From: a virus
Lineage: Duplodnaviria > Caudoviricetes
Length of the DNA: 31,888 bases
Virus record (IMG/VR): IMGVR_UViG_3300037743_000407
Span: 1-31,888 of that record
Direction: 5' to 3' (one strand)
Position 1 is the first letter of the stretch, and each line of letters starts with the position of its first letter. The notes beneath the pieces are model-generated. The model did not search any database. It saw only the letters and a list, made by a program, of their open reading frames with translations, and was not told the origin of the DNA. A program made the position numbers and the translations under genes. Below are positions 1,050-23,614 of the stretch, piece by piece.

Positions 1050-1057
1050 GGACCCCG

Positions 1058-1936: not shown

Positions 1937-2496
1937 TGGCCAGCACCGCCACGGCGCTCGACGACGAGCGCGCCGACTACGTCGAGTCGCCGGACATGAA
2001 GAAGATCGCGGTCGCCCTCGTGCGCCGTCATCCCACCATCCGGGCCGTGGTCGAGGACCTGCGCGTCGGCTACCGCCTTCGCCTGGGCGAGCCGTCCGGC
2101 GAGGGCGAGGAGGCCATCGCCAAGTGCCACAAGGCGCCGCCGCTGTGGCGCGACGAGTCGGGGCTCGACGTCGTGATCTGGGCCTGGCAGTACTGGTGGG
2201 AGGTGTTCGACGAGCGCCAGCGCGAGGCCCTGGTCGTGCACGAGCTATGCCATATCGACCGCACCGAGAAGGGCGGCGTGAAGCTCCGAAAGCACGACGT
2301 CGAGGAGTTCACCCTGGTCGTCCACGAGTACGGCGTGTGGGACGGGTTCAGCCGGCTGCGCGACTTCGGGCGCGCGCTGGCGCGGCACGCCGACGCCGAC
2401 CCCCGCAAGGTCACCCGCCTGCCGGCCGGGCGCGAGCGACGGCGGCCGGGCTCGCGACAGCCGCAGGGCGATGAGCCGCCGGTGGTGCACCCGTGA
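1936..2496 (+). CDS. Putative phage metallopeptidase
   Basis: HELCH (HExxH) motif followed by KHDVEEF..VV..YG, typical of the phage metallopeptidase family; TGATG coupling. Confidence 0.85.
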   Translation: MASTATALDDERADYVESPDMKKIAVALVRRHPTIRAVVEDLRVGYRLRLGEPSGEGEEAIAKCHKAPPLWRDESGLDVVIWAWQYWWEVFDERQREALVVHELCHIDRTEKGGVKLRKHDVEEFTLVVHEYGVWDGFSRLRDFGRALARHADADPRKVTRLPAGRERRRPGSRQPQGDEPPVVHP

Positions 2497-2771
2497 TGCA
2501 GCAAGATCGCGCTGTCGTCGAGCTTGCGCTCGGTCTGATCGAGACGCACGGCTTCACCCGCGGCGGCATGAAGCCCGAGACCGGTCTCGGCGTGGCTGCA
2601 GCGTTGTCGCTGGTAGCAACCGATGAGCTGTCGGCAATCCGGGCCGCGGCGCTGATCCGCGAGGCCAACGGCATCGACCACCTGGTGGACTGGGAGCTCG
2701 AGTCGGGGCGCACGCAGGCCGAGGTCGTGGACGCGCTCGAGCGCGCCGCTGGCCTGAGGTTCACGCCATGA
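2493..2771 (+). CDS. Hypothetical protein (DUF6197-like C-terminus)
   Basis: C-terminal W....GRTQAEVVDALERAA motif; coupled at both ends. Confidence 0.6.
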   Translation: MMQQDRAVVELALGLIETHGFTRGGMKPETGLGVAAALSLVATDELSAIRAAALIREANGIDHLVDWELESGRTQAEVVDALERAAGLRFTP

Positions 2772-2881
2772 CCTGGCCGACGCTGCTGCTGCTGATCAGC
2801 GGCTTCGTGATGATGCTGGCCGGGATCACCATCCTGCTGCGCGCCGCCGGCATCGACGATGACTGGGACCCGTTCCGATGA
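2768..2881 (+). CDS. Small single-pass membrane protein (37 aa)
   Basis: Hand-translated MTWPTLLLLISGFVMMLAGITILLRAAGIDDDWDPFR; ATGA overlaps at both ends. Confidence 0.7.
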   Translation: MTWPTLLLLISGFVMMLAGITILLRAAGIDDDWDPFR

Positions 2882-3219
2882 CCCGCTGCGCGGCGGCCTG
2901 CGGCCGCGACCTGCCCGACGAGGAGCTGATCGAGACCGGCGGCGTGCTGGTGTGCGGGCCGTGTCACGAGTCGATCGCCAAACAGGCCGAGCGTCGCGAC
3001 TCGATCGACGACGCCTGGCGGGCGGTGGAGATCGCCCGCGGTTACCGGGTCGTCGATCTCCACGAGCTTTCACCGACCGACGAGATGCCGCAGACGCTAT
3101 GGTTCGCGGCTGCCCGCCGCGGCGACGAGCCGAAGCCGTGCGTGCTGGGCTCGACGCCGGTCGAGGCCCTGCGCCGCCTGGCGGCCAAGCTCGCCGACGA
3201 GCGGTCGGGGGTGACCTGA
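2878..3219 (+). CDS. Hypothetical protein with N-terminal Cys4 zinc finger
   Basis: CAAAC...CGPC; ATGA coupling. Confidence 0.7.
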   Translation: MTRCAAACGRDLPDEELIETGGVLVCGPCHESIAKQAERRDSIDDAWRAVEIARGYRVVDLHELSPTDEMPQTLWFAAARRGDEPKPCVLGSTPVEALRRLAAKLADERSGVT

Positions 3220-3222
3220 CCG

Positions 3223-3519
3223 ATGACCATCGCGGAGGGCACACCGCACGATGGGCTCCGGGTCGGGGCCGACACCCGCCGTCGGGCGGCCGCCTCCGGC
3301 CGGCCGGTCAGCTACCAGGTCCTCGTCGAGCTCGGATGGTTCTGGGCGGCCGCCAGCGGCCAGACCCCGCACCTGGTGCCGCCCTACGGCGACGCCGCGC
3401 ACTGTGGCCGGCCGCTGAGCCGCGCCGACCGTCATCCCGTCACCCAGGGCATCGCCGAGCACGCCTGCGCGGTGTGCTGGAAGCGTGCCCTGGGTAACAC
3501 GCCGAGGAGGAGTCGATGA
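3223..3519 (+). CDS. Hypothetical protein, possible zinc binding
   Basis: H...HCG...CAVC; fills the gap between neighbours. Confidence 0.55.
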   Translation: MTIAEGTPHDGLRVGADTRRRAAASGRPVSYQVLVELGWFWAAASGQTPHLVPPYGDAAHCGRPLSRADRHPVTQGIAEHACAVCWKRALGNTPRRSR

Positions 3520-3728
3520 GCGTCGTCGATCCCCGCGTCCGGCTGACCTGCGACGTGCAGGAGCGCGGCGCGCACCACTCCACCTACTGCGGCGCCTCGG
3601 CTGCGGTGGAGCTGTCCACGTTGGTCGAGTGCGAGTCCGAACCCAGCGGAGCGCATGCGGTGACCTTCGCCATCTGTCCCCGCCACCTGGCCGCCATGCA
3701 GGCTGGCCAGCACCAGGAGGTCGCATGA
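3516..3728 (+). CDS. Hypothetical Cys/His-rich protein
   Basis: GAGGAG RBS; ATGA overlaps; C..C..C..CPRH. Confidence 0.65.
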   Translation: MSVVDPRVRLTCDVQERGAHHSTYCGASAAVELSTLVECESEPSGAHAVTFAICPRHLAAMQAGQHQEVA

Positions 3729-4151
3729 CCACCACCACCGGACCCCCCCGGTCCGCTACGTCTGCTCGAAGTGCGGCGGCCCTACGTCTGCTCGAAGTGC
3801 GGCGGCCCGAACGTCCACCTCGACGAGTCGCGGACCACCATCGATCCACGCTACCCGATCGGCCACTGCGATCGCTGCACGCCGGAGCCGAAGCCGCGCA
3901 TCAAGAAGGGCACCGGGCCGGGCACTACCCGCGAGGCGGTGTGGGTCACCTCGGCACGGCGGACCGTCCCGCTGCTGCGCGCCGACCTCGACGACCCGGC
4001 CGACCGCGAGCACCGCGCCAAGCTGGCCAGGATGCGCGAGCTGGCGGCCCGGCTGCACCCCACCACGGCGGCCCAGCGACGGAAGCGCTACAGCGAGGCC
4101 GAGCTCAAGGAGGCCAGCGCTGCCGTGGCCTGGCTGCGGAGGGCTGAGTGA
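3725..4151 (+). pseudogene. Zn-ribbon protein gene with disrupted 5' end (C7 tract plus 26-bp tandem duplication), or an assembly error
   Basis: AGGAGG RBS and ATGA start at 3725 are out of frame with the YVCSKCGG...HCDRC body (ORF 3771..4151). Confidence 0.55.
3756..3807 (+). repeat. Perfect 26-bp tandem duplication CTACGTCTGCTCGAAGTGCGGCGGCC x2
   Basis: Copies at 3756-3781 and 3782-3807. Confidence 0.95.
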
Positions 4152-4378
4152 TGGCCCGCCAGAGCCGTGTACACGACCCCAGGAGCTGCGAGCGCTGTCA
4201 TCAGGGCCTTCCACTTGACTCGGCACCCAACCGCCGATTCTGCCCGTCCTGCGCGGACGCGCGGCGGGCGCTGACCTACGCGCGCAAGGCCCACGACTTC
4301 GCCATCGACGCCGGGCTCGACTCGATCGCCGGGCGGCTGGGCGTCATCGTCGGCGAGCTGGAAGGGCCGGCGTCATGA
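4148..4378 (+). CDS. Hypothetical Cys4 zinc-finger protein
   Basis: CERC...FCPSC; coupled at both ends. Confidence 0.65.
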   Translation: MMARQSRVHDPRSCERCHQGLPLDSAPNRRFCPSCADARRALTYARKAHDFAIDAGLDSIAGRLGVIVGELEGPAS

Positions 4379-5061
4379 GCGGCATGCGCTCGCACCTGTT
4401 CGGCTGTGCGTGCAAGAGACACGCCGCCCGGGCATGGAACCGCCCCGAGCACTGGACGACCGCCGAGGTCGGGTATCTCGAAGCACGGTTCGGCCACACG
4501 TCGGTCGCGGCCATCGCCGGGCACCTCGGTCGTACCGAGGTCGGCGTACGGATCAAGGCCAAGCGGCTCGGTCTGCGCATGAAGGACGCGGGCTACACCG
4601 GCTCCGAGATCGCGCGGCTGATGGGCGTCGATATCACCACGGTGACCAAGTCTTGGATCCGCCGCGCTGGCCTGCGGTCACGGCGTCCCTATCGCCAGGG
4701 ACCGAACCGGGTGCACCTGGTATCGCAGCGCCACATCGAGGTCTTCATTCGCACCCGCGGCTGGTGGATCGACTGGGAGAAGGTGCCGGCCGACTCGCCG
4801 TTTCATGCGCTGGTGCAGCGGCACCGCTGGTACGGCAAGGCGCAGCTGCACCGCTTGACCGGGCGGCTGACCGTCGACGACGACATCCGCGCCGGCTTGA
4901 TTCGTGCCAGGAAGCGCGGGGCGCACTGGTACGTGCCCGAGTCGGAGATCCCGAAGATCCGGCGCCTGCCGGCCGAGCACATCGCCGAGAGCGTCTGGCG
5001 GCGCGAGCAGGTCCTGCGGGTGCGTCGCGAGCGCCGGCGCCGGCTGGCGGTGGCGTCATGA
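4375..5061 (+). CDS. DNA-binding protein with Myb-like and HTH domains
   Basis: WTTAEVGYL...IAGHLGRTEVGVRIKAKRLGL, then YTGSEIARLMGVDITTVTKSWI, and an excisionase-like C-terminus (IRAGLIRARKRGAHWYV). Confidence 0.75.
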   Translation: MSGMRSHLFGCACKRHAARAWNRPEHWTTAEVGYLEARFGHTSVAAIAGHLGRTEVGVRIKAKRLGLRMKDAGYTGSEIARLMGVDITTVTKSWIRRAGLRSRRPYRQGPNRVHLVSQRHIEVFIRTRGWWIDWEKVPADSPFHALVQRHRWYGKAQLHRLTGRLTVDDDIRAGLIRARKRGAHWYVPESEIPKIRRLPAEHIAESVWRREQVLRVRRERRRRLAVAS

Positions 5062-5336
5062 GGATCGGCACCGTGTGGACCACCATCCGCGCCCGACTGC
5101 CGTGGCGTCATCGTGAAGAGCGCGTGGTCGGCGTCGGCGAGGTGGCCTGGCTGATGCGCGGCGAGACGTGGCGGGCGGTGACCCGCGAGGAGCGGCCCGA
5201 CCTGTTCTTCGAGCCCGAGGTATGTCGCGGCTGTGGCTGCACTGACGAGCGCGCCTGCCCGGGCGGCTGCTTCTGGGTCGGCCGCGGGCTGTGCTCGCGG
5301 TGTGTGGCGGGTTCGGAGGGACCGATTGATGCCTGA
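5058..5336 (+). CDS. Cys-rich phage protein
   Basis: CRGCGCTDERACPGGCFWVGRGLCSRC motif; ATGA start. Confidence 0.75.
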   Translation: MRIGTVWTTIRARLPWRHREERVVGVGEVAWLMRGETWRAVTREERPDLFFEPEVCRGCGCTDERACPGGCFWVGRGLCSRCVAGSEGPIDA

Positions 5337-5676
5337 CCGCCCACCCGCAGCCGGGGAGCCGAGCACCGAGGCTGGACGGATCATGCGTGCAGACCTGCTT
5401 ATCCGGTGGTCGCGGGACGCCCGATGGGTGACTCAGCAAATTCTCGCCATTGAGGCCGAAGCCCGAAGCGGGGCGTTCCAGAAAGGCGAGGCTGCAATCG
5501 GGGCGATGCTGGAGGCCCGCTCCGTCAGAGCCGAACCACTGGACGTGGAGCGACTCGGCGCTGCAATGGAAGAGGCTTGCGACGCCCTCAGCGTGACCAG
5601 CCTTTGTCCAGCAGATGCGCCGATCCTGTTCGCCCGCCTCTCCGAGTCCCCCGAACCCAGCGGGGAGCGTCCATGA
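5329..5676 (+). CDS. Hypothetical protein (visibly lower GC)
   Basis: GGAGG RBS; ATG at 5329; overlaps both neighbours. Confidence 0.6.
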   Translation: MPDRPPAAGEPSTEAGRIMRADLLIRWSRDARWVTQQILAIEAEARSGAFQKGEAAIGAMLEARSVRAEPLDVERLGAAMEEACDALSVTSLCPADAPILFARLSESPEPSGERP

Positions 5677-5864
5677 GCCCCGCCACGATCGACGCCGTGC
5701 GCCGCGTCGGGCGCCTGCTGGACGACGAGGCCGAGCTGCGCGTCGAGGCCCGCCGGCTCGAGCTCGACCCGGCCCGCACCGCCAAGGCGGCCCGCCTGTT
5801 CCGCCTGGCCAGCGAGCTGCGCGCCGAGCGGCTCGGGCTGCTGGACCGATGGCTGACGCGCTGA
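5673..5864 (+). CDS. Hypothetical helical protein (63 aa)
   Basis: GGAG RBS; ATGA start; MSPATIDAVRR... Confidence 0.6.
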   Translation: MSPATIDAVRRVGRLLDDEAELRVEARRLELDPARTAKAARLFRLASELRAERLGLLDRWLTR

Positions 5865-5867
5865 GCG

Positions 5868-7112
5868 ATGCGATCCCAGCCGCTGCCGTCGGACGCTGCC
5901 CCGGACGCGATCGATGCGGCCTGGGACGCGCCGGAAACTGTACCGACGTCGGAACAGTTACCGGAGCTGGAGCCAGCGCCGATCAACGGCGCGCCGCTGC
6001 CGCGCTTCCCGAGCCCGGAGCCGGACCCTGCCGACCTGGCCGACTGGTCGACCGGCGCCGAGGCCCTCAACCGGTTGCCGCTGCGCACGCGCCTGCAGCT
6101 GACCGAGGCGCTGAGCGACAGCCGCTCGGCGTGGCGCGAGGAGCTGTCGAAGGCCGAGAGCCACGTCGATCGCCTGCGCTACGACACCGAGGCCATGCTG
6201 GCCTCGGAGATCGGGACGCGGCTCGGGTCGCGGACGCTGGCCGAGATGAGCATGGAGCCGCCGCCGCCGATGCCGCTCGGACGCCTGGATCCCCTCGGGC
6301 ACACCGTGCTGTTCGGCACCGGCGGGGTCGGCAAGGGCCTGCTGGCGGCGTGGTGGACGCTGCAGCTGAGCCGGCTCGGCGAGCGGGTGCTGATCATCGA
6401 CTACGAGAACCATCCCGACGAGTGGGCGCGGCGGGTATACGCCATGGGCGGCGCGCACCTGCTGGGCGACGTGCTGCACGTGGCGCCGCTGACGGCGGCC
6501 TGGGGCGGCAAACGCGGGGCGATCTGGGAGCAGGCCGACGACCTGCGGCGGCTGGCGGTCGAGTGGCGGGCGACCAAGCTGGTCATCGACTCGATCGTGC
6601 CGGCCTGCTCGGGGTCCGACCCGCTGAAGCCGGAGTCGGTGAGCCTGTATGCCGGGGCGCTCGAGCTCATCGGCCTGCCGGCGCTCAGCCTCGGCCATGT
6701 CACCAAGGCCGACGACCTGCGCTACCCGTTCGGCTCGGTGTTCTGGCACAACCTGAGTCGCGTCACGTGGAGCGCCAAGCGCAGCGGCGAGCGGATCCTG
6801 CTCACCCACCGCAAGCACAACAACTACGAACGCCAGGCGGCGCTGCTGGTCGAGGTCTCGTGGCTGGACGGGCTGCCGGTCGACGTGGCCGAGCGGCCGG
6901 CCGGCGAGGAGCTGGCGCAGCGCGTCTCGGTCGCCCTGCGCTCCGGGCCGCTAACGGTGCGCCAGATCTGCGAGCGGCTGGACGAGGATCTCGACGACGA
7001 GGATGCCGAGCCGACCAAGCCGGACAGTGTCAGCCGTGCCCTGCGACGCGGCCAGAAGGACCACCCGCCGCGCTTCGTGAAGGTTGGGTCGGATCGATGG
7101 GGAAACGGCTGA
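5868..7112 (+). CDS. RecA-like/AAA_25 ATPase, probable replicative helicase (RepA type)
   Basis: Walker A GTGGVGKG, VLIIDYE, Walker B LVIDS, LGHVTK, PFGSVFW; C-terminal HTH-like segment. Confidence 0.8.
   Translation: MRSQPLPSDAAPDAIDAAWDAPETVPTSEQLPELEPAPINGAPLPRFPSPEPDPADLADWSTGAEALNRLPLRTRLQLTEALSDSRSAWREELSKAESHVDRLRYDTEAMLASEIGTRLGSRTLAEMSMEPPPPMPLGRLDPLGHTVLFGTGGVGKGLLAAWWTLQLSRLGERVLIIDYENHPDEWARRVYAMGGAHLLGDVLHVAPLTAAWGGKRGAIWEQADDLRRLAVEWRATKLVIDSIVPACSGSDPLKPESVSLYAGALELIGLPALSLGHVTKADDLRYPFGSVFWHNLSRVTWSAKRSGERILLTHRKHNNYERQAALLVEVSWLDGLPVDVAERPAGEELAQRVSVALRSGPLTVRQICERLDEDLDDEDAEPTKPDSVSRALRRGQKDHPPRFVKVGSDRWGNG
5936..5959. promoter_or_regulatory. parS-like palindrome, copy 1 (AACTGTACCGACGTCGGAACAGTT)
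   Basis: 24-bp near-perfect palindrome; its reverse complement matches 12208-12231 at 23/24. Confidence 0.6.
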
Positions 7113-7318
7113 TGCTGTCCGGATTCCTGTCCGACCACGCTCATGACCGATTCGGCGTGCTGTCCGACCTGCTGTCCGACTTCGGCCCGTTTCACGCTCA
7201 AATCCTGTCCGACCAAATCGCTCGGACGGTCGGACAAGCGGAGACGACCGGTCGGACAGCCGGGCGCGCCTTTAGGCGCCTGCCCGCGTCCGCGCGCGCG
7301 CGTGAGGCTCGATCATGA
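7112..7318 (+). CDS. Possible 68-aa ORF running through the iteron cluster
   Basis: TGATG overlap at the start and ATGA overlap at the end; repeats read as LSD. Confidence 0.4.
   Translation: MLSGFLSDHAHDRFGVLSDLLSDFGPFHAQILSDQIARTVGQAETTGRTAGRAFRRLPASARAREARS
7115..7259. repeat. Iteron-like cluster, putative replication origin
   Basis: CTGTCCGAC at 7127, 7160, 7172 and 7205 (variant at 7115); inverted GTCGGACA at 7229 and 7251; directly after the helicase gene. Confidence 0.6.
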
Positions 7319-7500
7319 CGGCCGCAACACGCCGACCCTCGAAGCGCGCCACCCATGAGACCCGCGTGACCATGACCCGCGACCAGCTGCGCGCCGCGGT
7401 GGCCGCGGTGTTCTACCCCGCCATGCCGGCCTGGGACGAGGCCGGGCAGGTGCGCATCGACCGTGCCACCCAGCGGCTGATCGAGGCGGTGCGTCGATGA
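7315..7500 (+). CDS. Hypothetical protein
   Basis: GAGG RBS; ATGA coupling to the next gene. Confidence 0.6.
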   Translation: MTAATRRPSKRATHETRVTMTRDQLRAAVAAVFYPAMPAWDEAGQVRIDRATQRLIEAVRR

Positions 7501-7739
7501 GCGCGCTCGATCGCTTCCCCGGCGCGCCGAAGGGCGCCTACGTCTGTGAGGAGGGCTGGCTGATCGTCGGTGACGAGGCGTGGACCGAGGCCGAGTGGTC
7601 GACGCGTCACGGGCGGAGCACCGTCTCGTTCGGTCAGTCGAAGTACCTCAATCGTTACACCACCCAGACCGAGCGCCGTCTGGCACGGCTGCGCACCCGT
7701 CGTGAGTCCGCCCGTCGTCGTCGAGCAATGGCGTCGTGA
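7497..7739 (+). CDS. Hypothetical protein with basic C-terminus
   Basis: Coupled at both ends. Confidence 0.6.
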   Translation: MSALDRFPGAPKGAYVCEEGWLIVGDEAWTEAEWSTRHGRSTVSFGQSKYLNRYTTQTERRLARLRTRRESARRRRAMAS

Positions 7740-7972
7740 CCCCGGCCCCACGTCGCTGCGTGGTGTGCCGCGCCGTCGTCGCCGACCACACGCTAACTCT
7801 GCTCGCGCTGCGCGGCTACCTCGTCCACGGCTTCGATCCCGGCGAGCGACGCAGCGGTGAGCGGCGGTCGGCGACCTGGGGGAGGGCCCCCGGTGGCGGG
7901 GCCGCCGAGACCGGCGGGGTTAGCGCCTCGCAGCCTGTACAGGTTCCAGCTAACGGCGGGTTGCCGCGATGA
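7736..7972 (+). CDS. Hypothetical protein
   Basis: GTGA/ATGA overlaps; CVVC..H and ERRSGERR motifs. Confidence 0.5.
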   Translation: MTPAPRRCVVCRAVVADHTLTLLALRGYLVHGFDPGERRSGERRSATWGRAPGGGAAETGGVSASQPVQVPANGGLPR

Positions 7973-8292
7973 GCGCCACACCGCTGTCCGAGGTCACCCG
8001 CTACCTTGACCTGCCGCGCTGGCACGACCGGCGCGGGCACCCGTCGCTCGACACCGACGAGATCCTCGAACTGCGCCGCGCCGCCGCACCGATCCTGGCC
8101 ATGCCGTTTCACGGTGGCGATCGGGCGCTGCTGCTGCAGCAGCTCGCCGAGCGGTTCGGGATCAGCGTGCGCACGGTCTACCGCTATCTCGTCGGCGACG
8201 TCGTCGTGGTCGAGGTCGCCGGCTGGGTGGCGCTGTATCGGGTTCACGGGGGGGGTCCGCGACAGATGACCGCGTGGAGTAGGCGCCGATGA
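7969..8292 (+). CDS. HTH DNA-binding protein
   Basis: QQLAERFGISVRTVYRYL helix-turn-helix. Confidence 0.75.
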   Translation: MSATPLSEVTRYLDLPRWHDRRGHPSLDTDEILELRRAAAPILAMPFHGGDRALLLQQLAERFGISVRTVYRYLVGDVVVVEVAGWVALYRVHGGGPRQMTAWSRRR

Positions 8293-8825
8293 TCACCTTC
8301 ACCGTCCGCGGCATCCCCGCCCCGCAGGGCTCCAAGCGCGCGTTCCGCAACAAGTACTCCGGTCGCATCCAGCAGGTCGAGTCGAGCAAGCGCGTGGCGC
8401 CGTGGCGCTCGGATGTGCGCGACGCGGCCATCGACGCGGTGACCGAGGACCGCGACGGCATGGGCTGGATGCGCGACCCGCTCACCGGCCCGGTGGCCGT
8501 CGCGCTCGAGTTCCGGATGCCGCGGCCGAAGGGCCACTACGGCAGCGGGCGCAACGCCGCGGTGCTCAGGGCCAGCGCGCCGACCCGTCCAGCCGGCAAG
8601 CCCGACGTCGACAAGCTGGCGCGCGCGATCCTCGACGCCATCACGGCCATCGTCATCGCCGACGACGCGCAGGTCGTGAGTCTGACCGCCTCGAAGGTCT
8701 ACGCCGACGAGCACCGCCCGGTCGGCGTTCATGTCGTCGTCACCGACCTCGACGCTGCCATCACACCGCCCGACGTGGACACGGTCTGGTTCGGCGGCCC
8801 CCTCATCCCCACCGAAGGAGACTGA
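8289..8825 (+). CDS. rusA: RusA-family Holliday junction resolvase
   Basis: GIPAPQGSKR, F.MPRPK, KPDVDKLARAILDAIT, DDAQVV. Confidence 0.92.
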   Translation: MITFTVRGIPAPQGSKRAFRNKYSGRIQQVESSKRVAPWRSDVRDAAIDAVTEDRDGMGWMRDPLTGPVAVALEFRMPRPKGHYGSGRNAAVLRASAPTRPAGKPDVDKLARAILDAITAIVIADDAQVVSLTASKVYADEHRPVGVHVVVTDLDAAITPPDVDTVWFGGPLIPTEGD

Positions 8826-8827
8826 CC

Positions 8828-10174
8828 ATGCCCACTGCCACCACCCCGAAGCCGGCCGCCGATTCGGCGGCGAATGACTGGAAGCCCGAGCTGCGCGACG
8901 TCCCGATAGAGGCGATCGACATGGTCGACAACGTGCGCGCCGGTGCTGGCGACGTGACTGACCTGCGTGATTCGATCAAGGCGCACGGCGTCATCAGCCC
9001 GATCCGGGTCGAGTCGGCCGGCACTCGCGACGGCACCGCGCACTATGCCCTGGTCTACGGCCAACGCCGGCTGGAAGCAGCCCGGGCGGCCGGGCTCACC
9101 ACCATCCCGGCGCTGGTTGATGCCGAGTACCGGACCGGGTCGAGCCTCGTCGTCACCCAGCTGATCGAGAACCTGCAGCGCGAGGATCTCAACGCGCTCG
9201 ACACCGCGCGGGCGTACCGGACCCTGCTCGACAGCGGCATGACCCAGCGCCAGCTCGCCGGCGAGCTCGGCATCGCGCAGCCGACGATCGCCAACACCCT
9301 GGCCCTGCTCAAGGCGCCCGAGGAGCTGCAGGCGCGGGTGGCCGCCGGCGAGCTGACCCGCAGTCACGTTGAGGCCATCGTGAAGCTGCCGAGGGCCGAG
9401 CAGGCCGAGGTGGCGCGGCGGGTGGTCGAGCACAAGCTGTCCACGCGCGACGTCGAGGAGGAGATCACCCGGGCCGCCGAACGCCAGGCGCAGGCCGACC
9501 GAGCCCGTGACGAGCGGCGGGCCTTGGCCGACGCGTCCGAGGCGGCGCTGGCCAAGAAGAAGCGCGGCGGCACGAAGGAGACCGCCATCCTGTTCAGCTA
9601 TGACCCGCAGCTGAACCACGAGCTCAAGCTGCGCGGCTGGACGGTGCTTGACGAGCGCCCGGGCTACTACGGCGCGCCGGCTGGCTGCGATTGCCCGGGC
9701 TGGGCGATCGTTTGGAACTACACGGGCGCCAAGCAGGACTCGGTGACGGTGACCGCGCAGTGCATCAAGCCTGCCCACATCAAGGCGGCCAACGACGCGG
9801 CCGAGGAACAGCGGGCGAAGCAGCGCGCCGAGTTTGAGGCCAAGCACGCTGCCGAGGCGACTGCACGCGCGGAGACGGTTGAGGCCGCCGTCGTGGCTGT
9901 CACGGCCGACGCGGACCTGCGCAACCGGCTCGTGCTGCTGGCCCTCATCGAGCACATGGGTAACTGGGACGAGGACGTCATCGCCTTCCTCGACTCGGTT
10001 ACCACCGATGACGACGAGGGCACCAGCACCCGGGACCTCGTCGGCAGGCTCGATCGCGAGGTGGTCGAGGCCGGTGCGCTGCGACTGTTGGCGGTCAGTG
10101 CGATCGACACGGGCATCGAGCTCGCCACCCCGCCCGCGTCGAAGCCGGCGAAGCGGTCGAAGGTGAAGGGCTGA
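8828..10174 (+). CDS. parB: ParB/Spo0J-like protein with long C-terminal extension
   Basis: GAAGGAG RBS; SIKAHGVISPI, YGQRRLEAA, LIENLQREDLN, HTH TQRQLAGELGIAQPTIANTL. Confidence 0.88.
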   Translation: MPTATTPKPAADSAANDWKPELRDVPIEAIDMVDNVRAGAGDVTDLRDSIKAHGVISPIRVESAGTRDGTAHYALVYGQRRLEAARAAGLTTIPALVDAEYRTGSSLVVTQLIENLQREDLNALDTARAYRTLLDSGMTQRQLAGELGIAQPTIANTLALLKAPEELQARVAAGELTRSHVEAIVKLPRAEQAEVARRVVEHKLSTRDVEEEITRAAERQAQADRARDERRALADASEAALAKKKRGGTKETAILFSYDPQLNHELKLRGWTVLDERPGYYGAPAGCDCPGWAIVWNYTGAKQDSVTVTAQCIKPAHIKAANDAAEEQRAKQRAEFEAKHAAEATARAETVEAAVVAVTADADLRNRLVLLALIEHMGNWDEDVIAFLDSVTTDDDEGTSTRDLVGRLDREVVEAGALRLLAVSAIDTGIELATPPASKPAKRSKVKG

Positions 10175-10890: not shown

Positions 10891-10988
10891 CCTTCGATCT
10901 GATCAGCTTTGTGCTCGGGGCTCTCGTAGGCGCGGCCGTCATCTGCTTCGTCGTCGGCGCACTCGTGGACAGGGCGCTGCGTCGATGA
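10887..10988 (+). CDS. Small membrane protein (33 aa)
   Basis: MTFDLISFVLGALVGAAVICFVVGALVDRALRR; GTGA/ATGA overlaps. Confidence 0.65.
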   Translation: MTFDLISFVLGALVGAAVICFVVGALVDRALRR

Positions 10989-12538
10989 CCCTGCCCCGTT
11001 CCCTCGACGACCTGGCCGGCCTGCGCGCCGCGCGCTGGATCCGCGAGAGCACCGCCGAGCAGACCGACCGCTACGGGCCGGCCGCGCAGCGCGAGCACCA
11101 GGACCGCGCCATCGCTCGTCACGGCCTGGTCGACAGCGGCCTGGTCTGGCAGGTCGCCCACTCCGGGCGCACGATCGCCACGACGCCGGCCTTCGTCCAG
11201 ATGATGGCCGCCGCCGGCGTTGAGTTCGACGTCCTGCTGGTCGGCTACGTCAGCCGCTTCGCGCGCGACCTCGAGACCGCGGTCACCGCCCGTCGTCAGC
11301 TGCACGCCGCCGACGCCGCGATCCTGTTCTGCGACGATGGCATCCTGACCAGCGACGTCGACCAGTGGGAGCGCTGGGCGCGCGAGGCGGTCGAGGCCGA
11401 GGCCTACAGCCACCGCCTGGCGCGCCGCATCAGCGAGGGCTATGCGGCCAAGTTCCGGGGCGGCGACCAGGGCGGCTCGCCCGGGCTCGGGTTCATGCGC
11501 ACGCCGGCGCCCGACAGCCGGCTGGTCATCGACCCGGCCGCCATGCCGCGCGCGGTGGCGCTGTTCGAGCGCTACGCGATCGGCAGCGTGTCGATCGCCG
11601 AGCTGGCCGCCGACGACGGAGGGCTCGGGGTCGAGGGCGTGCGCGCCATCCTGGCCAACCCGCTGTACAACGGCTGGGCGGTCCGCCATCGCCAGCGGCC
11701 CGACGAGAGCCGCAGCGCGGCGCCGTGGCGCTCGAGCCCGCCGGTGGACGACGAGCTGTGGGCCCGCGTCCAGGCCGTGCGCGCCGAGCGCCATCGCGGC
11801 GGCGGCGGGCCCGCTCGCCACGTGCACCTGCTCGCCAAGCGCCTGTGGTGCGCCTGCGGCCGCCGGCTGCGGGCCGACGTCGCCCACCAGCGGCGCTCGG
11901 CGCCGATCCGCCGCTACCGCCACGACGATCGCTGCATGGCCTGGTCGACGTCGACCGTGCCTGCCCGCCGCCTCGAGGAGGTCGTCGATCGCCAGCTGCG
12001 CGAGCTGCGGCTCGACGCGGCGTGGCTCGCGCGCCTGCGGCTGCTGGCCGGGCAGGCGGTGCCCGCGCCCCAGAGCGGGGAGCTGCGCCGCCGGCAGCTC
12101 GAGCGCGAGCTCGAGGGCAAGGCGCGGCTGCTCGCCCGCCGCCAGCTGACGACCGAGGCCTTCGTCGCCGAGTCCGAGCGCATCCGCGCCGAGCTCGACG
12201 CGCTCGAAACTGTTCCGACGTCGGTACGGTTGGTCGATCCCGACGCGGCCATCGTCGCGCTGCGGACGCTGCGCACGGCCTGGCGCGACGCGGATCCCGA
12301 CGTGCGCCGGCGTCTGGTGCGCGCCGTCTTCGAGCGGGTCGAGGTCGTCGACCCCGCCGTTCCGGTCGCCCTCCACCAACGGCTCACCCCCTGGGCCCGG
12401 GCGCACGGGCTGGCCACCGCGCTGCCGGTGACGGTGGTTCTAGCGTCCCCGGCAGGGGCCGGGCTGTGGCGCGCCACAGTCACCATCGAGGGACGCGCCG
12501 AGGAGCTGGCCGCCGCGCGGCGGGTGCGCAGCGCATGA
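10985..12538 (+). CDS. int: Large serine recombinase (phage integrase)
   Basis: WIRESTAEQ catalytic Ser, FDVLLVGYVSRFARD, recombinase domain VRAILANPLYNG, P.VDDELW..VQ, zinc ribbon CACG...YRH...C, coiled coil. Confidence 0.93.
   Translation: MTLPRSLDDLAGLRAARWIRESTAEQTDRYGPAAQREHQDRAIARHGLVDSGLVWQVAHSGRTIATTPAFVQMMAAAGVEFDVLLVGYVSRFARDLETAVTARRQLHAADAAILFCDDGILTSDVDQWERWAREAVEAEAYSHRLARRISEGYAAKFRGGDQGGSPGLGFMRTPAPDSRLVIDPAAMPRAVALFERYAIGSVSIAELAADDGGLGVEGVRAILANPLYNGWAVRHRQRPDESRSAAPWRSSPPVDDELWARVQAVRAERHRGGGGPARHVHLLAKRLWCACGRRLRADVAHQRRSAPIRRYRHDDRCMAWSTSTVPARRLEEVVDRQLRELRLDAAWLARLRLLAGQAVPAPQSGELRRRQLERELEGKARLLARRQLTTEAFVAESERIRAELDALETVPTSVRLVDPDAAIVALRTLRTAWRDADPDVRRRLVRAVFERVEVVDPAVPVALHQRLTPWARAHGLATALPVTVVLASPAGAGLWRATVTIEGRAEELAAARRVRSA
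12208..12231. promoter_or_regulatory. parS-like palindrome, copy 2 (AACTGTTCCGACGTCGGTACGGTT)
   Basis: 23/24 identical to the reverse complement of 5936-5959. Confidence 0.6.
12427..12484. other. Candidate attP inside the integrase 3' end
   Basis: Two 28-bp arms around GG (12455-56); outer inverted repeat 10/11, inner 6/6; left arm resembles a tRNA 3' end on the minus strand. Confidence 0.7.
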
Positions 12539-12843
12539 GCCGCCGACGCCTGGTCGTCAACCGCACCAACTACGAGCTCGCCGCGCCACTGGCCGAGCAC
12601 GGCGCCGCGCTGGCCGAGCTGTACCGCCGCTGGGTGGCCGAGGAGCAGCGATTGACCATCGAGCTCGGCGCCGACGAGCCGCCGACCTTCGCCGACTTCG
12701 TGGCCTGGATCGTCGAGCGTGGCAACCGCCACCCCCACCGCCCGCCGGGCCGGCCCGAGCACCCGGGCGCGCGCCGCAACCGCTCACGGGCCGCCCTGGC
12801 GCGTCACCAGCGTGAGCGCGAGCGGCAGACCGCCTCGGCCTAG
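12535..12843 (+). CDS. Hypothetical protein coupled to the integrase (102 aa, basic C-terminus)
   Basis: ATGA overlap with the int stop; MSRRRLVVNRTNYELAAP... Confidence 0.7.
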   Translation: MSRRRLVVNRTNYELAAPLAEHGAALAELYRRWVAEEQRLTIELGADEPPTFADFVAWIVERGNRHPHRPPGRPEHPGARRNRSRAALARHQRERERQTASA

Positions 12844-16434: not shown

Positions 16435-17043
16435 ATGGACTGTCCGAGGGACCCACCCTGCGGCCGGCCGCACGTCACGCGGCACGGCGGGCCGTCGTGT
16501 GGCGCGCACCGCTCGGGCGACCGCGGCACGCCGTGCGCGAATCCGCCGATCCACGGCGGCCGGGTGTGTCACAAGCACGGCGCCGCGGCACCGCAGGTGA
16601 AGGCCTCGGCGCAGGCGCGGATGCGTGCCAAGGCCGAGGAGCTCATGCCGTCGGCGTTCGGTGCACTGCGCACGATCCTCGAAGGGCGCTGGAATCCGAC
16701 CGCCCAGGTGCGCGCCGCGCACGAGGTGTTCGACATCCTGAAGGCCACGGAGGTCGGCGCCGAGTCCGAGTCGAAGGGCGCGATCAGCGACCTCATGGAG
16801 CGGCTGCGTGCCGACGCTGAGCTACCCGAGCCCCAAACAGGCGGCGTCGATCCTGGGCTCGACCGCCCGGATCAACATCTGGGACGGCAGCGTGCGGGCC
16901 AGCAAGACGGTGGCGACCCTGATCCGCTGGCTCGACTTCGTCGCCCACGGGCCCGACGGCGAGCTGCTGCTGCTGGCGAAGACGGAGCGGACGCTGGCCC
17001 GCAACATCCTCCACCCGCTCGAACAGATCCTGGCACCCGGTGA
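16435..17043 (+). CDS. terS: Terminase small subunit (HGGxSTG-like zinc domain)
   Basis: CGAHR...PC......GGRVCHKHGA; directly upstream of and overlapping terL. Confidence 0.7.
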   Translation: MDCPRDPPCGRPHVTRHGGPSCGAHRSGDRGTPCANPPIHGGRVCHKHGAAAPQVKASAQARMRAKAEELMPSAFGALRTILEGRWNPTAQVRAAHEVFDILKATEVGAESESKGAISDLMERLRADAELPEPQTGGVDPGLDRPDQHLGRQRAGQQDGGDPDPLARLRRPRARRRAAAAGEDGADAGPQHPPPARTDPGTR

Positions 17044-18049
17044 CCTTCGCATCCGCTGGGGCGCCGGCGAGGCGACGCTGTGGGGGCGGCGCATGTACCT
17101 CGGCGGTGCCAACGACGAGAGCGCGGTCGACAAGATCAAGGGCGTCACGCTGGCCGGCCTGCTCGGCGACGAGATCAGCACCTGGCCGCCGAACGTGTTC
17201 AAGATGGTGCTCAGCCGGTTGTCGATCGAGGACGCCAAGCTGTTCGGCACCACCAACCCCGAGGCGCCGATGCACTGGTTGATGGCCGAGTACCTGAGCC
17301 GCGCCGACGAGCTCGACCTGGCGCGCTTCCACTTCACCATCGACGACAACCCGTTCCTGGCCCCGGCCTTCGTGGCGGCGCTCAAGAAGGAGTACACCGG
17401 GCTCTGGTACCGGCGCTACATCGAGGGCGAGTGGGTCGTCGCCGAGGGTGCCATCTACGACATGCTCGACGACCGGCGCCACCTGGTCGACGTGCTGCCC
17501 GAGCTGATCGAGACCTGGGACGTCATCGACTACGGCACCACCAACCCGACCGTGTTTCTGGCCCTGAGCCTCGGCGTCGACGGCCGACTGTACGTCCACG
17601 ACGAGTGGCGCTGGGACTCGGCCAAGAAGGGCCACTCGCTGACCGACGCGGAGTACTCGGGGCACCTGCGCGCCTGGCACGCCCGCCTCAAGCGCGAGCC
17701 GCGCTGGATCTACGTCGACCCCAGCGCCGCCAGCTTCAGCACCCAGCTGTGGCGCGACAAGGTGCGCGGCGTGGTCCCCGCCGACAACACCGTCATCGAC
17801 GGCATCCGCGAGGTGGCCATGCTGCTCGGGCTCAACCTGCTCAAGTTCCACGCGCCGACCACCGTCGATGCCTGGGGCGAGTTCGTCGGCTACGTGTGGG
17901 ACCCGAAGAAGCAGGCCAAGGGCGAGGACGCCCCGCTGAAGGTCAACGACCACGCCCCCGATGCCGTCCGCTACGGGATCCGCAGCACGCACACCGTCTG
18001 GCACCCCTGGATCAGCAGCCACGAGGAGACCGCCCATGTCGCTACCTGA
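16808..18049 (+). CDS. terL: Terminase large subunit (PBSX-like)
   Basis: DGSVRASKT Walker A, LGDEI Walker B, TTNP, IDYGTTNPT, VDPSAA, NDHAPDAVRY. Confidence 0.95.
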   Translation: MPTLSYPSPKQAASILGSTARINIWDGSVRASKTVATLIRWLDFVAHGPDGELLLLAKTERTLARNILHPLEQILAPGDLRIRWGAGEATLWGRRMYLGGANDESAVDKIKGVTLAGLLGDEISTWPPNVFKMVLSRLSIEDAKLFGTTNPEAPMHWLMAEYLSRADELDLARFHFTIDDNPFLAPAFVAALKKEYTGLWYRRYIEGEWVVAEGAIYDMLDDRRHLVDVLPELIETWDVIDYGTTNPTVFLALSLGVDGRLYVHDEWRWDSAKKGHSLTDAEYSGHLRAWHARLKREPRWIYVDPSAASFSTQLWRDKVRGVVPADNTVIDGIREVAMLLGLNLLKFHAPTTVDAWGEFVGYVWDPKKQAKGEDAPLKVNDHAPDAVRYGIRSTHTVWHPWISSHEETAHVAT

Positions 18050-19562
18050 TGGGGGCCGGTCGCCCTGGCCGCCCGAGCCGGCGCGTCCCGCCCTGCGGCT
18101 GATTCGCGAGTGGTCGGCGTGGTGGAGCGCCGACCCGGCCAACCTGATCGCCGTGTACGGCTCGACCGTCGGCGGCCAGGCGACGGCCATGGCGCCCAAG
18201 AACTGGTTCCGCCGCTTCTGGGAGCGCATCGCCGGCAGCGGCCAGAGCTTCGGCTCGCCCGAGGGGCGCCAGCGCGCCTACCTGCACGTGCCGCTGGCCA
18301 GCGACATGGCGGCCACCAGTGCGGCGCTGCTGTTCAGCGAGGCGCCGACCATCCGCATCGCGGCCGCCCACCTCGCCGGCGCGACGACGGTGGTCAAGGC
18401 CACCGAGGCCGAGCTGCAGCGCATCCGCTCCGAGGGCGGGCTCGACGCGCGCCTGCTCGAGGCGGCCGACTATGCCGCCGGGCTGGGCGGCGTGTTCCTC
18501 AAGCCGACCTGGGACCAGGACCTGGCCGACTACCCGCTGCTCGAGGTCGTGCAGCCCGACCAGGCGCTGCCCGAGTTCCGGCACGGGATCCTGACCGCCG
18601 CCACGCTGTGGCGCGAAGTCGACCGCACCGACAAGGAGGTCCTCCGCCATCTCGAGCGGCACGAGGTGGTCGATGGCCGCAGCTTCGTGCTGCACGCGCT
18701 GTACCGCGGCGACGACGAGGTCCTCGGCACGCGCATGGAGGACGCAGAGCTGCTGGCCAAGGTCGAGCTCGAGCCGAGCGTCGAGCTGCCGTTCGAGGGG
18801 CTCGGCGTCGGGTACGTGCCGAACCTGCGGCCCAACCACCGGCTGCGCGGGTCATCGCTGGGCGAGGCCGACTACGGCGGTCGCGAGGGCCTGCTCGACG
18901 CGCTCGACGAGGCGTACGCCTCCTGGATGCGCGACATTCGGCTCGGCAAGGGGCGGATCCTGGTCAGCCGCCAGATGCTCGACACCAACCGCCGCTTCGA
19001 CATGGACCACGAGGTGTATGCCCCGATCGAGATGCCCGGCGCCTCGGCCGGCACGCCGCTCAAGGATCAGATCAGCGCCGAGCAGTTCCAGATCCGCTAC
19101 GAGGCGCACCGCGACACGTGCCTGACGCTCACCGAACGCATCGTGTCGGGACCGTATTCGCCGCAGACCTTCGGGCTGCACATCGAGGGCCGCGCCGAGT
19201 CGGGCACCGCGCTCGACATCCGCGAGCGACGCACGTTCATGACCCAGCAGCGCAAGGCCGCCTGGTGGGGCGCCGCGGTGGCCACCGCCACCGAGCAGAT
19301 GCTGATCGTGGCGCGCCACGTGTTCAACCGGCCGATCGAGTCGATGCGCCCGAGCGTCGAGCTCAGCGACTCGGTGGCCACCGACGCCTACCGCACGGCC
19401 GAGACGGTCGACCTGCTGAACCGCGCCGAGGCCGCCTCGCGTCGGACGCTGGTCGAGATGCAACACCCCGACTGGACGCGCGAGCAGGTGCAGGTCGAGG
19501 TCGACGCCATCCTCGCCGAGCGCGGCCTGGCCGTCGCCCCGCCCGATGAGCCGCCGGTCTGA
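18036..19562 (+). CDS. Portal protein (A118/SPP1-like)
   Basis: GAGGAG RBS; follows terL; HVPLASDMA..SA.LLF.E, YVPN, LDALDEAY.SWMRD.RLGK, YSPQTFG, HPDW. Confidence 0.9.
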   Translation: MSLPDGGRSPWPPEPARPALRLIREWSAWWSADPANLIAVYGSTVGGQATAMAPKNWFRRFWERIAGSGQSFGSPEGRQRAYLHVPLASDMAATSAALLFSEAPTIRIAAAHLAGATTVVKATEAELQRIRSEGGLDARLLEAADYAAGLGGVFLKPTWDQDLADYPLLEVVQPDQALPEFRHGILTAATLWREVDRTDKEVLRHLERHEVVDGRSFVLHALYRGDDEVLGTRMEDAELLAKVELEPSVELPFEGLGVGYVPNLRPNHRLRGSSLGEADYGGREGLLDALDEAYASWMRDIRLGKGRILVSRQMLDTNRRFDMDHEVYAPIEMPGASAGTPLKDQISAEQFQIRYEAHRDTCLTLTERIVSGPYSPQTFGLHIEGRAESGTALDIRERRTFMTQQRKAAWWGAAVATATEQMLIVARHVFNRPIESMRPSVELSDSVATDAYRTAETVDLLNRAEAASRRTLVEMQHPDWTREQVQVEVDAILAERGLAVAPPDEPPV

Positions 19563-19576
19563 TTCGGCGCCGAACA

Positions 19577-20620
19577 ATGGCCATCGATCCGCGTCAGGCG
19601 ATCACCCTGGCCAGCGCGCTGCGCGAGCTGTACGGCTCGGCCGAGGACCGTGTGCTGCGCATCGTGGCCCGCCGCCTGGCGGCCGGCATCGATCAGCCGG
19701 GCTGGGCCGAGCGCAAGGCCGCCGAGCTGACCAGCGTGCGAGTCGAGCTCGAGCGCGCCATCGCCGAGCTCGACGTCGCCGGCCCCGAGCAGCTACGCCT
19801 GCTGGTCGAGCAGGCCCATCGCGTCGGGGCTGTGGCCGCGGCCGACGCGCTGGGCGGGGCGCTGGCGGTGCGCAGCAACCCGGCCGCCGTGCAGGCGCTG
19901 GTCGAGGCCACCGCCGGGCAGCTGCGCAACACGCACCTGCCGATCCTGCGCACCGCCACTGATGCCTACCGCGCCACCGTGGCCGAGGCGGCCGGCTTCG
20001 GAGTCACCGGCGTCGAGACGCGGCGTGAGACCGCGCGGCGCGCCATGCGACGCTTCGCCGACCGCGGGGTGACCGGCTTCGTCGACAGCGCCGGGCGCCA
20101 CTGGGACCTGTCGAGCTACACCGAGATGGCCACCCGCTCGGCGCTCGGCCAGGCGCACCTGACCGGGCACCTCGACCAGCTCACCGCCCGCGGCCACGAC
20201 CTGGTCCGCATCAGCGACTCGCCCGACGAGTGCAAGCTGTGCCGTCCGCACGAGGGCCGCATCTACTCGATCGGCGGCGTCAACCCGAAGTACCCGGCCC
20301 TCGCCGACGCGCGCGGGCAGGGCCTGTTCCACCCCAACTGCACGCACAGCCTGGCGCCCTACGTCCCGGGGCTGTCGCGACCGTTCGGCAGGACCGCCGA
20401 CCCGGTCGGCAACCGGGAACGTGCCCAGCACCGCAGCAACGAGCACCAGATTCGGCACTGGAAGCGACGCGAGTCGGTGGCCAGCGCCATGGGCGACCAG
20501 CGCGGGCAGGCCCAGGCGGCAGCCAAGGTCGGCGAGTGGCAGGCCGAGCAGCGTCGCTTCATCGCCGACACCGGGCGCCGGCGCGACTACGCCCGCGAGG
20601 CGGCCGGAGCGGCGCGCTGA
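19577..20620 (+). CDS. Phage minor capsid/head morphogenesis protein
   Basis: FVDSAGRHW.LSSYTEMATR, C.LC.P.EGR, GLFHPNCTH. Confidence 0.88.
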   Translation: MAIDPRQAITLASALRELYGSAEDRVLRIVARRLAAGIDQPGWAERKAAELTSVRVELERAIAELDVAGPEQLRLLVEQAHRVGAVAAADALGGALAVRSNPAAVQALVEATAGQLRNTHLPILRTATDAYRATVAEAAGFGVTGVETRRETARRAMRRFADRGVTGFVDSAGRHWDLSSYTEMATRSALGQAHLTGHLDQLTARGHDLVRISDSPDECKLCRPHEGRIYSIGGVNPKYPALADARGQGLFHPNCTHSLAPYVPGLSRPFGRTADPVGNRERAQHRSNEHQIRHWKRRESVASAMGDQRGQAQAAAKVGEWQAEQRRFIADTGRRRDYAREAAGAAR

Positions 20621-20796
20621 TGGCCACCGAGGAGGAGTGGACCTGCCTGCGCAAGCGCCGCTATCCGACCCGTGCCAAGGCTCGCTGGGTCGCGCGCCGC
20701 GCATCGCTCGAGATCGGCAAGGTGCGCGCCTACCGATGTCCGTTCGGGCCGCACTACCACATTGGACACCCACCCAGGGTGACCGAGCAGCGATAA
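20620..20796 (+). CDS. Small zinc-binding hypothetical protein
   Basis: C..KRRYPT...A...RAYRCPFGPHYHIGH; TGATG start. Confidence 0.7.
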   Translation: MATEEEWTCLRKRRYPTRAKARWVARRASLEIGKVRAYRCPFGPHYHIGHPPRVTEQR

Positions 20797-20803
20797 TGGC
20801 GGC

Positions 20804-20980
20804 GTGGCCATCGGCATCCGGATCGAGCTCCGCGACCTCCCGCGCCTCAAGCAGTTGATCTGGGAGCTGCGCCAGACCGAGCAGCGCCTGCGCGATGCCG
20901 GCCGTCCCGAGGCCGACGAGATCGAGCACATGCTCGATCGCTTCCTGGCCGATATCAGCCTCGACGAGCGGTCCGCCTAG
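20804..20980 (+). CDS. Hypothetical protein (58 aa)
   Basis: Hand-translated MAIGIRIELRDLPRLKQLIWELRQTEQRL...; stop codon lies inside the promoter motif. Confidence 0.55.
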   Translation: MAIGIRIELRDLPRLKQLIWELRQTEQRLRDAGRPEADEIEHMLDRFLADISLDERSA

Positions 20981-21005
20981 GTTCTGTACCCCCTCCTGCT
21001 AGGTT
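20975..21005 (+). promoter_or_regulatory. Putative late promoter, copy 2: GCCTAGGTTCTGTAC-N8-GCTAGGTT
   Basis: Matches 12838-12868; upstream of the scaffold and capsid genes. Confidence 0.7.
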
Positions 21006-21032
21006 CGCTCACGGACCGACCAGGAGGATTCC

Positions 21033-21731
21033 GTGGCGCTCATCAACCTGCTGCTTCTCGCCGTCTTCGCCGTCATCGGGCTGTTCACACCCGGCGAGGG
21101 TGGCGGCGATCCGCCGGCCGACCCGCCGGCACCGAAGCCGGGCGATCCGCCCGCGGATCCTCCTGGGCCGAAGCCGGCCGACCCGCCGGCACCGAAGCCC
21201 GGCGACCCGCCGGCCCCTCCGGCCCCGGCGCCCCAGGCGGGCACCAGCCTCGAGGACGTCCAGAAGCTGCAGCGGGAGCTGAACGAGGCCCGGACCCAGG
21301 CGGCCGGGTATCGCAACGCCGGGATCCAGGCGCTGGCCAAGGCGCTCGGCATCGACCTCCCCAAGGGCAAGGGTGAGGAGGGCCAGGAGGCCGCGCTCGC
21401 CCAGCTGCAAACCGAGATCACCACCCTGCGTGACGAGGCCCGCGGCGGCAAGATCGACGCCGGTCTCGAGCGGGTGTTCACCAAGCTCAGTGTCAACCCG
21501 CGGGTGGCACGCCCGTACATCGAACGGCAGTTGAAGGACCTCGACCCGAAGGCCGACGACTTCACGACCAAGCTCGAGCAGATCGTCCAGGCGGCGATCG
21601 ACGAGGAGCCCGCGCTCAAGGCGGCCCAGGCGGCCCGTCGCAGCGGTGGGGAGTTCAACGGCAATGGAGCGGCGTCCTCGGGCGAGACCGAGGACCCGAC
21701 GAAGCTCGCGGCCGTCGTGCCGCGCGGCTAG
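21033..21731 (+). CDS. Capsid scaffolding protein
   Basis: AGGAGG RBS; Pro-rich DPPA repeats, coiled coil, RSGGEF near the end; directly upstream of the capsid gene. Confidence 0.8.
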   Translation: MALINLLLLAVFAVIGLFTPGEGGGDPPADPPAPKPGDPPADPPGPKPADPPAPKPGDPPAPPAPAPQAGTSLEDVQKLQRELNEARTQAAGYRNAGIQALAKALGIDLPKGKGEEGQEAALAQLQTEITTLRDEARGGKIDAGLERVFTKLSVNPRVARPYIERQLKDLDPKADDFTTKLEQIVQAAIDEEPALKAAQAARRSGGEFNGNGAASSGETEDPTKLAAVVPRG

Positions 21732-21755
21732 TTCACCACCACCGGAGGCCCCTCA

Positions 21756-22943: not shown

Positions 22944-22961
22944 GCCGGGGAGCCGAATGAC

Positions 22962-22997
22962 GGGGAGCCTCGCGTCCGACCGGGACGCGAGCTCCCC
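22962..22997 (+). terminator. Strong GC hairpin after the capsid gene (terminator or mRNA stabiliser; no U-tract)
   Basis: GGGGAGC-CTCGCGTCC / GGACGCGAG-CTCCCC inverted repeat. Confidence 0.55.
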
Positions 22998-23613: not shown

Positions 23614-23614
23614 C

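Follow-up and report, generated by a model that had tools for sequence, protein, structure and literature searches.

Transfer RNA (tRNA) genes were long taken, in work on finding genomic islands, to be targets of tyrosine integrases. Islander 2014 (PMC4383910) knew of no serine integrase at a tRNA gene, and the word 'tRNA' is absent from the main text of a large survey of large serine integrases (PMC10083194). An earlier note on the DNA studied here also described tRNA targeting as usually associated with tyrosine integrases; serine recombinases at tRNA or transfer-messenger RNA (tmRNA) genes are rare but have been published, as has an att site within the gene of a serine integrase. One such recombinase is DsiB, described as a serine recombinase of ~500-540 amino acids from the ssrA genomic islands of Dehalococcoides, in the Chloroflexota (McMurdie 2011, PMC3146451). 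In this study, we analyzed the virus record IMGVR_UViG_3300037743_000407 of IMG/VR over its whole length of 31,888 bp (72% GC; the contig is incomplete), hereafter called the window. It encodes a large serine integrase, and a site inside the integrase gene is very probably the phage attachment site (attP) of this enzyme, in whose left arm the 3' end of a tRNA-Arg(TCT) gene of the Limnocylindria type is copied.

The attachment site in the integrase gene

The site occupies positions 12427-12484 on the plus strand, within the last 37 codons of the integrase gene, and the 58 bases quoted for it in the earlier note are correct. It consists of a P arm (12427..12454), which matches the left-arm consensus of attP and of the right attachment site (attR) in the family, a central GG (12455..12456), and a P' arm (12457..12484) containing a perfect 16-bp palindrome (12464-12479) that the earlier note does not mention and that is not a family feature among the family sites compared. 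The GG provides the first two bases of the Gly491 codon. As the earlier note had described, the two arms show a two-part symmetry about 12455/56, with 10/11 matches in an outer repeat and 6/6 in an inner one. Both repeats share one centre at a single position (12455/56) among 31,808 centres in the window, and under relaxed criteria the window still has a single instance, whereas 8 simulated sequences matched to it in length and dinucleotide composition have none. A short dyad around a 2-bp centre is also the layout of attP sites of large serine integrases. The outer motif GGTGG (12433..12437, positions -22 to -18, mirrored at 12474-12478) follows the family consensus and is the predicted site of the zinc-ribbon domain, judging from binding described in PMC3783163. 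The minus strand of 12441..12456 reads, again as described before, like a tRNA 3' end; it corresponds to positions 61-76 of tRNA-Arg(TCT), has CTA in place of CCA, and is identical to host genes over 14 bp. The central GG is antisense to C61-C62 of the tRNA and is the predicted crossover.

The integrase gene itself (10985..12538, plus strand, 517 amino acids) matches the Pfam family Resolvase (PF00239, E 2e-11) and the integrase family PHROG 95 (E 3e-46, residues 13-456). Ser22 (11048..11050) is the predicted catalytic serine by its role in the family, and R20, S22, R91 and R94, residues of a resolvase-type catalytic domain, are invariant in 85 sequences that share the C-terminal tail of the window integrase. 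A Pfam scan of the window integrase gave no match to the recombinase domain PF07508; the recombinase domain, zinc ribbon and coiled coil are supported by the PHROG 95 match, by the zinc ligands C289 and C291, which are invariant in the same 85 sequences, and by a structural model that aligns to Bxb1.

Two states of the locus and the tRNA target

Scoring of 8000 candidates gave 554 matches to the integrase, and the best 119 of these 554 fell into two classes by their C-termini: 84 end in a conserved tail, 34 in residues encoded by tRNA antisense, and 1 in neither. Tail-bearing forms hence outnumber integrated ones among close homologues. Members of the non-tRNA class (86 sequences including the query) were assigned by pattern in 70 cases and otherwise by eye. 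C-termini of the ASPAGFEP type, which the earlier note had suggested looking for among homologues, do exist, and one of them belongs to P0004, which is 75% identical to the window integrase. In a FastTree phylogeny of the integrase core the two classes interleave, with 18 changes of class, 17 of them forced by well-supported branches; the clade of the window integrase (support 99) includes P0004 and P0005, both of which have ends matching tRNA-Arg(TCT) antisense.

We fetched 182 loci, 181 of them with an integrase match. A single-protein search of viral contigs found no relative, and an alignment-based search contributed 22 loci. A whole tRNA gene, called by ARAGORN, lies antisense over the integrase 3' end in 82 of the 181 loci and belongs to one of eight types (Arg-CCG 36, Pro-CGG 20, Arg-TCG 12, Arg-TCT 4, Val-CAC 4, Arg-GCG 3, Asp-GTC 2 and Arg-CCT 1). 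Another 55 loci were classed as tail-bearing, one of them (L142) wrongly, and 44 were left unclassified (cut contigs, frameshifts, or arms unlike all 12 reference arms). Most of the named genome records behind the loci are Chloroflexota, many of them Limnocylindria. At one Arg-GCG locus (L020), a tRNA-Ser(GCT) gene lies just past the targeted gene on the same strand. The tRNA-Arg at the integrase end of L110 and L154 is called CCG and has an altered T-stem (centre AG) and a changed anticodon arm; it is possibly decayed or another isoacceptor.

A tRNA-Arg beginning with GTCCCCG, predicted as the target by the earlier note, was found and has the anticodon TCT. Over 14 bp, corresponding to tRNA positions 61-74, the left arm of the window site has the same sequence as actual tRNA-Arg(TCT) genes. 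The likeness was said to end exactly at the GG, which applies to four of the five tRNA genes tested; in the fifth it ends one base later. The 14-mer of the window is present in 151 of 301 genomes of the class Limnocylindria (a tally that includes six unpublished genomes, which enter into no other result), with the reversed control present in ~17, and these matches suggest a Limnocylindria-type Chloroflexota as the host. Integrating the phage in silico into the five tRNA-Arg(TCT) genes gave a complete tRNA-Arg(TCT) each time (ARAGORN, 5/5) and an integrase of 506-556 amino acids, depending on the host. CCA is encoded in 44 of 50 tail-bearing sites and absent from 10 of 66 integrated ones, so a missing CCA seems to be tolerated. 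The CCA-adding enzyme adds CCA to tRNA 3' ends, and the tolerance presumably comes about through this enzyme.

To locate the crossover we used 50 unique tail-bearing sites, the window site included; one of them, L142, is misfiled and represents an integrated form with a changed T-loop. Pairing of the arms peaks about tRNA positions 61-62, with 13.6 of 25 positions paired versus 5.7-8.2 at centres shifted by 1-6, and cognate arms pair better than swapped ones (13.6/25 versus 10.4/25). Identity to the tRNA ends at the centre in 23 sites, one base on in 20 and further on in 7. In L018 and L098 the centre is AG, matching the tRNA-Arg(GCG) of L020.

Junctions of related elements map to the predicted GG, in agreement with the earlier note. 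Ten elements were chosen for which both ends and the integrase were available, and their ends were joined in silico. Each of the 10 junctions formed a symmetric site and restored an in-frame tail with a terminal Ala, and the tails lie in three frames relative to the tRNA. The outer arms of these joined sites matched on average in 7.5 of 14 positions when cognate and in 5.0 of 14 when not. Four of the elements are at tRNA-Arg(TCT); one has a frameshifted integrase, and several of the left ends are inner junctions of tandem arrays. One of the ten, a 39.6-kb element at tRNA-Pro (G013:C9), is a prophage: it encodes terminase, portal, head and tape-measure proteins, and its tail genes are related to those of the window. 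A 37.6-kb element in G002 has no other match to window proteins and resembles an island. Within the G013:C9 contig (L262/L263, ~408460-416450) an inner integrase gene runs into the tail of its neighbour, regaining a tail while integrated. At left attachment sites (attL) such as L201 and L219, a start codon in frame with the orphan tail can arise from the displaced CCA end when the tail is in one of the three frames, and the tail might be made there as a separate peptide. In another locus (L259, 984-1094, G001:C12) Pro-type and Arg-type att-like sites are stacked 110 bp apart and followed by a tail-like frame.

The family also suggests how the bacterial attachment site (attB) is read. Both attP arms have the consensus GGTgG 18-22 bp away from the centre; in the tRNA half, GGTCG stands in the variable loop at 12-16 bp. 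When the attP profile was applied to 25 tRNA halves, its score was positive only at a 6-bp shift (4.15) and -0.72 or lower at all others. The outer motif is hence nearer to the centre in attB than in attP, as scored on the tRNA-body half of attB. For the zinc-ribbon motif, shifts of 5 bp (LI) and 4 bp (SPbeta) have been published, and variation is expected (PMC3783163; bioRxiv 10.1101/2025.01.03.631226). The integrase probably reads one motif, which in the tRNA variable loop stands 6 bp nearer to the centre than in attP.

Several observations weigh against reading the site as the attP for tRNA-Arg(TCT). The total symmetry of 17/28 is common and reached by 82 of the 31,808 centres, so that the two-part pattern, and not the overall symmetry, is what makes the site unusual. 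The site is absent from the 25 longest of the 47 inverted repeats listed, and an RNA hairpin at this position is not significant (folding z -1.57). The 6-bp shift differs from both published values. The 14-mer is not specific, with 14 of 30 inspected matches in tRNA-Arg(TCT) genes and 16 outside tRNA genes. In two sediment runs with the phage, no contig spans 12393-12532 and there is no loose end at the site, and neither an attL nor an attR of this phage was found. The loci are related and partly duplicates, and their counts overstate independence; on the core tree the class label is clustered (18 changes versus a mean of 29.7 after shuffling). Finally, the tails of the Pro-CGG subgroup are divergent, a strict tail motif matched only 18 of the 50 sites, and the final RSA or RTA residues may reflect only the overlapping start of the next gene. 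Taken to the extreme, the symmetry could be a chance product of coding sequence as GC-rich as this, in which so many centres equal it overall. We give this explanation next to no credence, since no other centre in the window shows the two-part pattern and the sites of the whole family are centred at the same tRNA position.

The exchanged tail, the next gene and the surrounding phage

The part of the integrase that integration would remove consists of residues 492-517 (12457..12538, plus strand). An AlphaFold2 (AF2) model of the integrase has a mean predicted local distance difference test score (pLDDT) of 91.8, and its best fold matches are serine integrase-att complexes; residues 13-478 align to Bxb1 (Z 13.9, root mean square deviation (rmsd) 7.7, 365 residues aligned). 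Alignments to solved integrases stop at model residues 467-479, apart from one poor exception (rmsd 17) that extends to 512. Past this region the crossover codon lies in the turn of a modelled strand pair (483-487/494-501), which is followed by a helix (504-516); the strand and helix of the tail itself have pLDDT values of 90-95. The tail is thus predicted to be a folded C-terminal appendage beyond the known integrase core. Tails change at synonymous positions, and their middle is conserved as protein. The model of the tail-less P0004 is ordered to ~475 and disordered past 481, where the alignment is mixed. As the tail lies past the alignment to solved integrases, the prophage form keeps the known core. 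A degradation tag like that of BPs was considered for the tail and is without support; the start of the next gene overlaps this end and can account for the terminal Ala.

The tail is also linked to the gene that follows it. An overlap between the integrase stop and an ATG or GTG start is present in 37 of 56 tail-bearing loci versus 6 of 82 integrated ones, and an open reading frame (ORF) of at least 40 amino acids starts on the integrase stop codon in 35 of the 56. Helix-turn-helix families were matched (E 0.01 or better) by 13 of the 22 such next-gene proteins scanned. In two loci (L087, 2449-2646; L095, 1504-1701) the gene on the integrase stop encodes an excisionase-type HTH_17 protein (E 4e-12), an unusual neighbour for a serine integrase and a possible recombination directionality factor (RDF) or regulator. 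In the window this position is taken by a 102-residue ORF (12535..12843, plus strand), which would be separated from the integrase gene in the integrated state. It has no match in Pfam or PHROG and none at 0.9 or above in Atlas. We considered it as the RDF and found no support; it belongs to no family, has no relatives among the fetched loci, and the downstream genes vary across the family. No conserved RDF candidate was seen among the ORFs neighbouring the integrase in these loci.

We propose that the free phage would make the 517-residue integrase with its conserved tail (the ORF is present; its expression is assumed) and that the enzyme would recombine attP and the tRNA gene at a crossover on GG/CC (tRNA positions 61-62). 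Family statistics and published structures suggest that its binding sites would be the outer motif, 18-22 bp from the centre in attP, and the copy of this motif in the variable loop of the tRNA. With the phage arm in place, the T-stem and acceptor strands of the tRNA would be complete again; the CTA end would have to be trimmed and CCA added by an enzyme, as expected from established tRNA biology. Integration would exchange residues 492-517 for tRNA-antisense residues, keep the whole canonical core, and separate the next gene from that of the integrase; relatives show both states. The earlier note had not drawn out this loss of the tail and of the link to the next gene. The swap might then tune the integrase, with the tail-bearing form integrating and the prophage form being quiet or ready for excision, which would restore the tail. 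In addition, the repaired tRNA would be transcribed towards the integrase gene and could damp it.

In the SPbeta integrase, excision requires the extreme C-terminus, which lines the RDF pocket (bioRxiv 10.1101/2025.01.03.631226), and in the phage Mx8 a swapped integrase C-terminus lowers activity (as cited in PMC4701971). We therefore hold a regulatory role of some form to be more probable than not, and consider it an even call whether the swap tunes the direction or activity of the integrase. The more specific idea that the removed tail is itself a directionality switch, such that the enzyme integrates with its tail and excises or opens an RDF site without it, is on the unlikely side. Alternatively, the attP and its target may be right and the swap without regulatory effect, if all that the tail does is to stabilize the fold or to contain the signals from which the next gene starts, in an ordinary integrase with a separate RDF. 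We hold this to be possible, if somewhat doubtful: the prophage form retains the known core and its model is ordered as far as that core, and the stop/start overlap is concentrated in tail-bearing loci, but a tail that is conserved as protein in its middle and predicted to fold argues against it, as do the SPbeta and Mx8 precedents. The prophage form could also be inactive and integration nearly one-way, with excision dependent on a tail-bearing integrase that an incoming element or a tandem neighbour supplies. The same idea was proposed for DsiB (PMC3146451), tandem arrays are common in the family, and an inner integrase can run into the tail of its neighbour; however, the core is complete without the tail, and the excess of tail-bearing forms among close homologues fits regular excision. 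We hold this proposal to be unlikely.

The remainder of the window has the layout of a phage genome. Replication and recombination genes found by domain scan (single-stranded DNA-binding protein (SSB), AAA_25, RusA and ParB-like; 576..10174, plus strand) lie to the left of the site, and packaging and structural genes found by domain and PHROG scans (terminase, portal, major head and tape measure; 16808..28461, plus strand) to its right. The inference that the window represents a free or excised genome is consistent with this order. Very unlikely in our view is that it is instead the inner junction of a tandem array, or that the true target is another locus with the 14-mer. Inner junctions do occur in relatives and the 14-mer is also found outside tRNA genes, but the 31,888 bp contain one phage gene set and no tRNA gene, a related phage (L171) has the same order across the site, and the nearest integrated homologues end in tRNA-Arg(TCT) antisense. 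The ParB-like and CAP-domain proteins of L171 are 68% and 75% identical to those of the window, and at the same position L171 carries a tRNA-Pro-type integrase of the same family, which suggests that the integration module was exchanged. Among annotated phages the window has no close relative (2 weak matches). The resolvase domain was matched once among the 38 window ORFs scanned (211 ORFs listed), and no match to a sigma-70 promoter or a terminator was found within 10500-13200. An array of ~24 copies of a 12-bp unit (1488-1773) lies inside the ORF at 1058-1936.

Comparison with known systems

The family provides precisely mapped pairs of serine attP and attB sites on conserved tRNA genes, which could serve as natural landing sites in uncultured Chloroflexota, and it nominates a host group for an unassigned phage. 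It also accounts for annotated recombinases with FEPAT-like ends, which are prophage forms on this view. The question raised for DsiB, whether an integrase may work only on the circle, can now be addressed with two natural forms of one enzyme. If the tail were a directionality switch, the direction of a serine integrase would be set by its own recombination event, with a target half-site that is read from the conserved tRNA variable loop, and this in a family that has moved among at least eight tRNA genes.

In the sources and sections available to us, each ingredient has a precedent (DsiB at tmRNA, the rumA elements, the tRNA-Leu elements and Mx8), and the combination was not found described. 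No tRNA-targeting family of serine integrases with a swapped tail appears in the 2025 TIGER note or in the accessible part of ProBord, and the consulted parts of PMC9203015 and PMC12884075 contain nothing on tRNA-targeting serine integrases. In the literature covered as a whole, no tRNA-targeting family of serine integrases with a conserved swapped tail was found described; such islands may be catalogued in supplements or databases.

According to its published description, DsiB likewise targets the tRNA-like 3' end of an RNA gene, forms tandem arrays and has an integrase gene that overlaps the att site at its 3' end, with a stop outside the island. It differs in that its target is tmRNA, with insertion midway through the T-loop, whereas here the targets are tRNA genes and the crossover is at positions 61-62. 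All 82 assigned targets are tRNA genes, as called by a tRNA-only scan, and no tmRNA was found in 16 longer regions scanned for both. DsiB is accompanied by a second recombinase, DsiA, whereas a single resolvase match was obtained among the scanned ORFs of this incomplete contig; moreover, the ssrA islands are not phages, and their recombinases are reported to have divergent C-termini and no conserved tail. The window integrase differs from DsiB as described in its tRNA target, its crossover at 61-62, its conserved tail and the single recombinase seen, and it is probably not a DsiB member.

The streptococcal integrative and conjugative elements (ICEs) at rumA (Ambroset 2016, PMC4701971) are reported to have, as here, an att site inside a serine-integrase gene and an exchanged C-terminus; unlike here, they are conjugative, and their target is a protein gene with reciprocal exchange of 3' ends. 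Serine recombinases at tRNA genes, called rare, are described for the Mycobacterium actinomycete ICEs (AICEs) at tRNA-Leu and for phiRSM (PMC3218068, PMC4471427), but the phiRSM enzyme is of the small resolvase type with an attP between genes, and in the accounts available an intragenic attP is not mentioned for the AICEs. The tyrosine integrase of Mx8, as cited in PMC4701971, has its attP in the integrase gene and its C-terminus swapped with lowered activity; it belongs to another recombinase family, and 112 residues are replaced compared with 26 here. With the integrases of LI/A118, Bxb1, phiC31 and SPbeta, as far as described in PMC3783163 and bioRxiv 10.1101/2025.01.03.631226, the window integrase shares the domain order, the fold, an attP of ~50 bp with dyad symmetry and a 2-bp centre, and an outer motif closer to the centre in attB. 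It differs from them in its apparent 6-bp shift (versus 4-5), its C-terminal appendage, its intragenic attP and its tRNA target. Judged by its sequence and by the predicted structure of the integrase, the site would work as that of a canonical large serine integrase, and it differs in target, register and tail.
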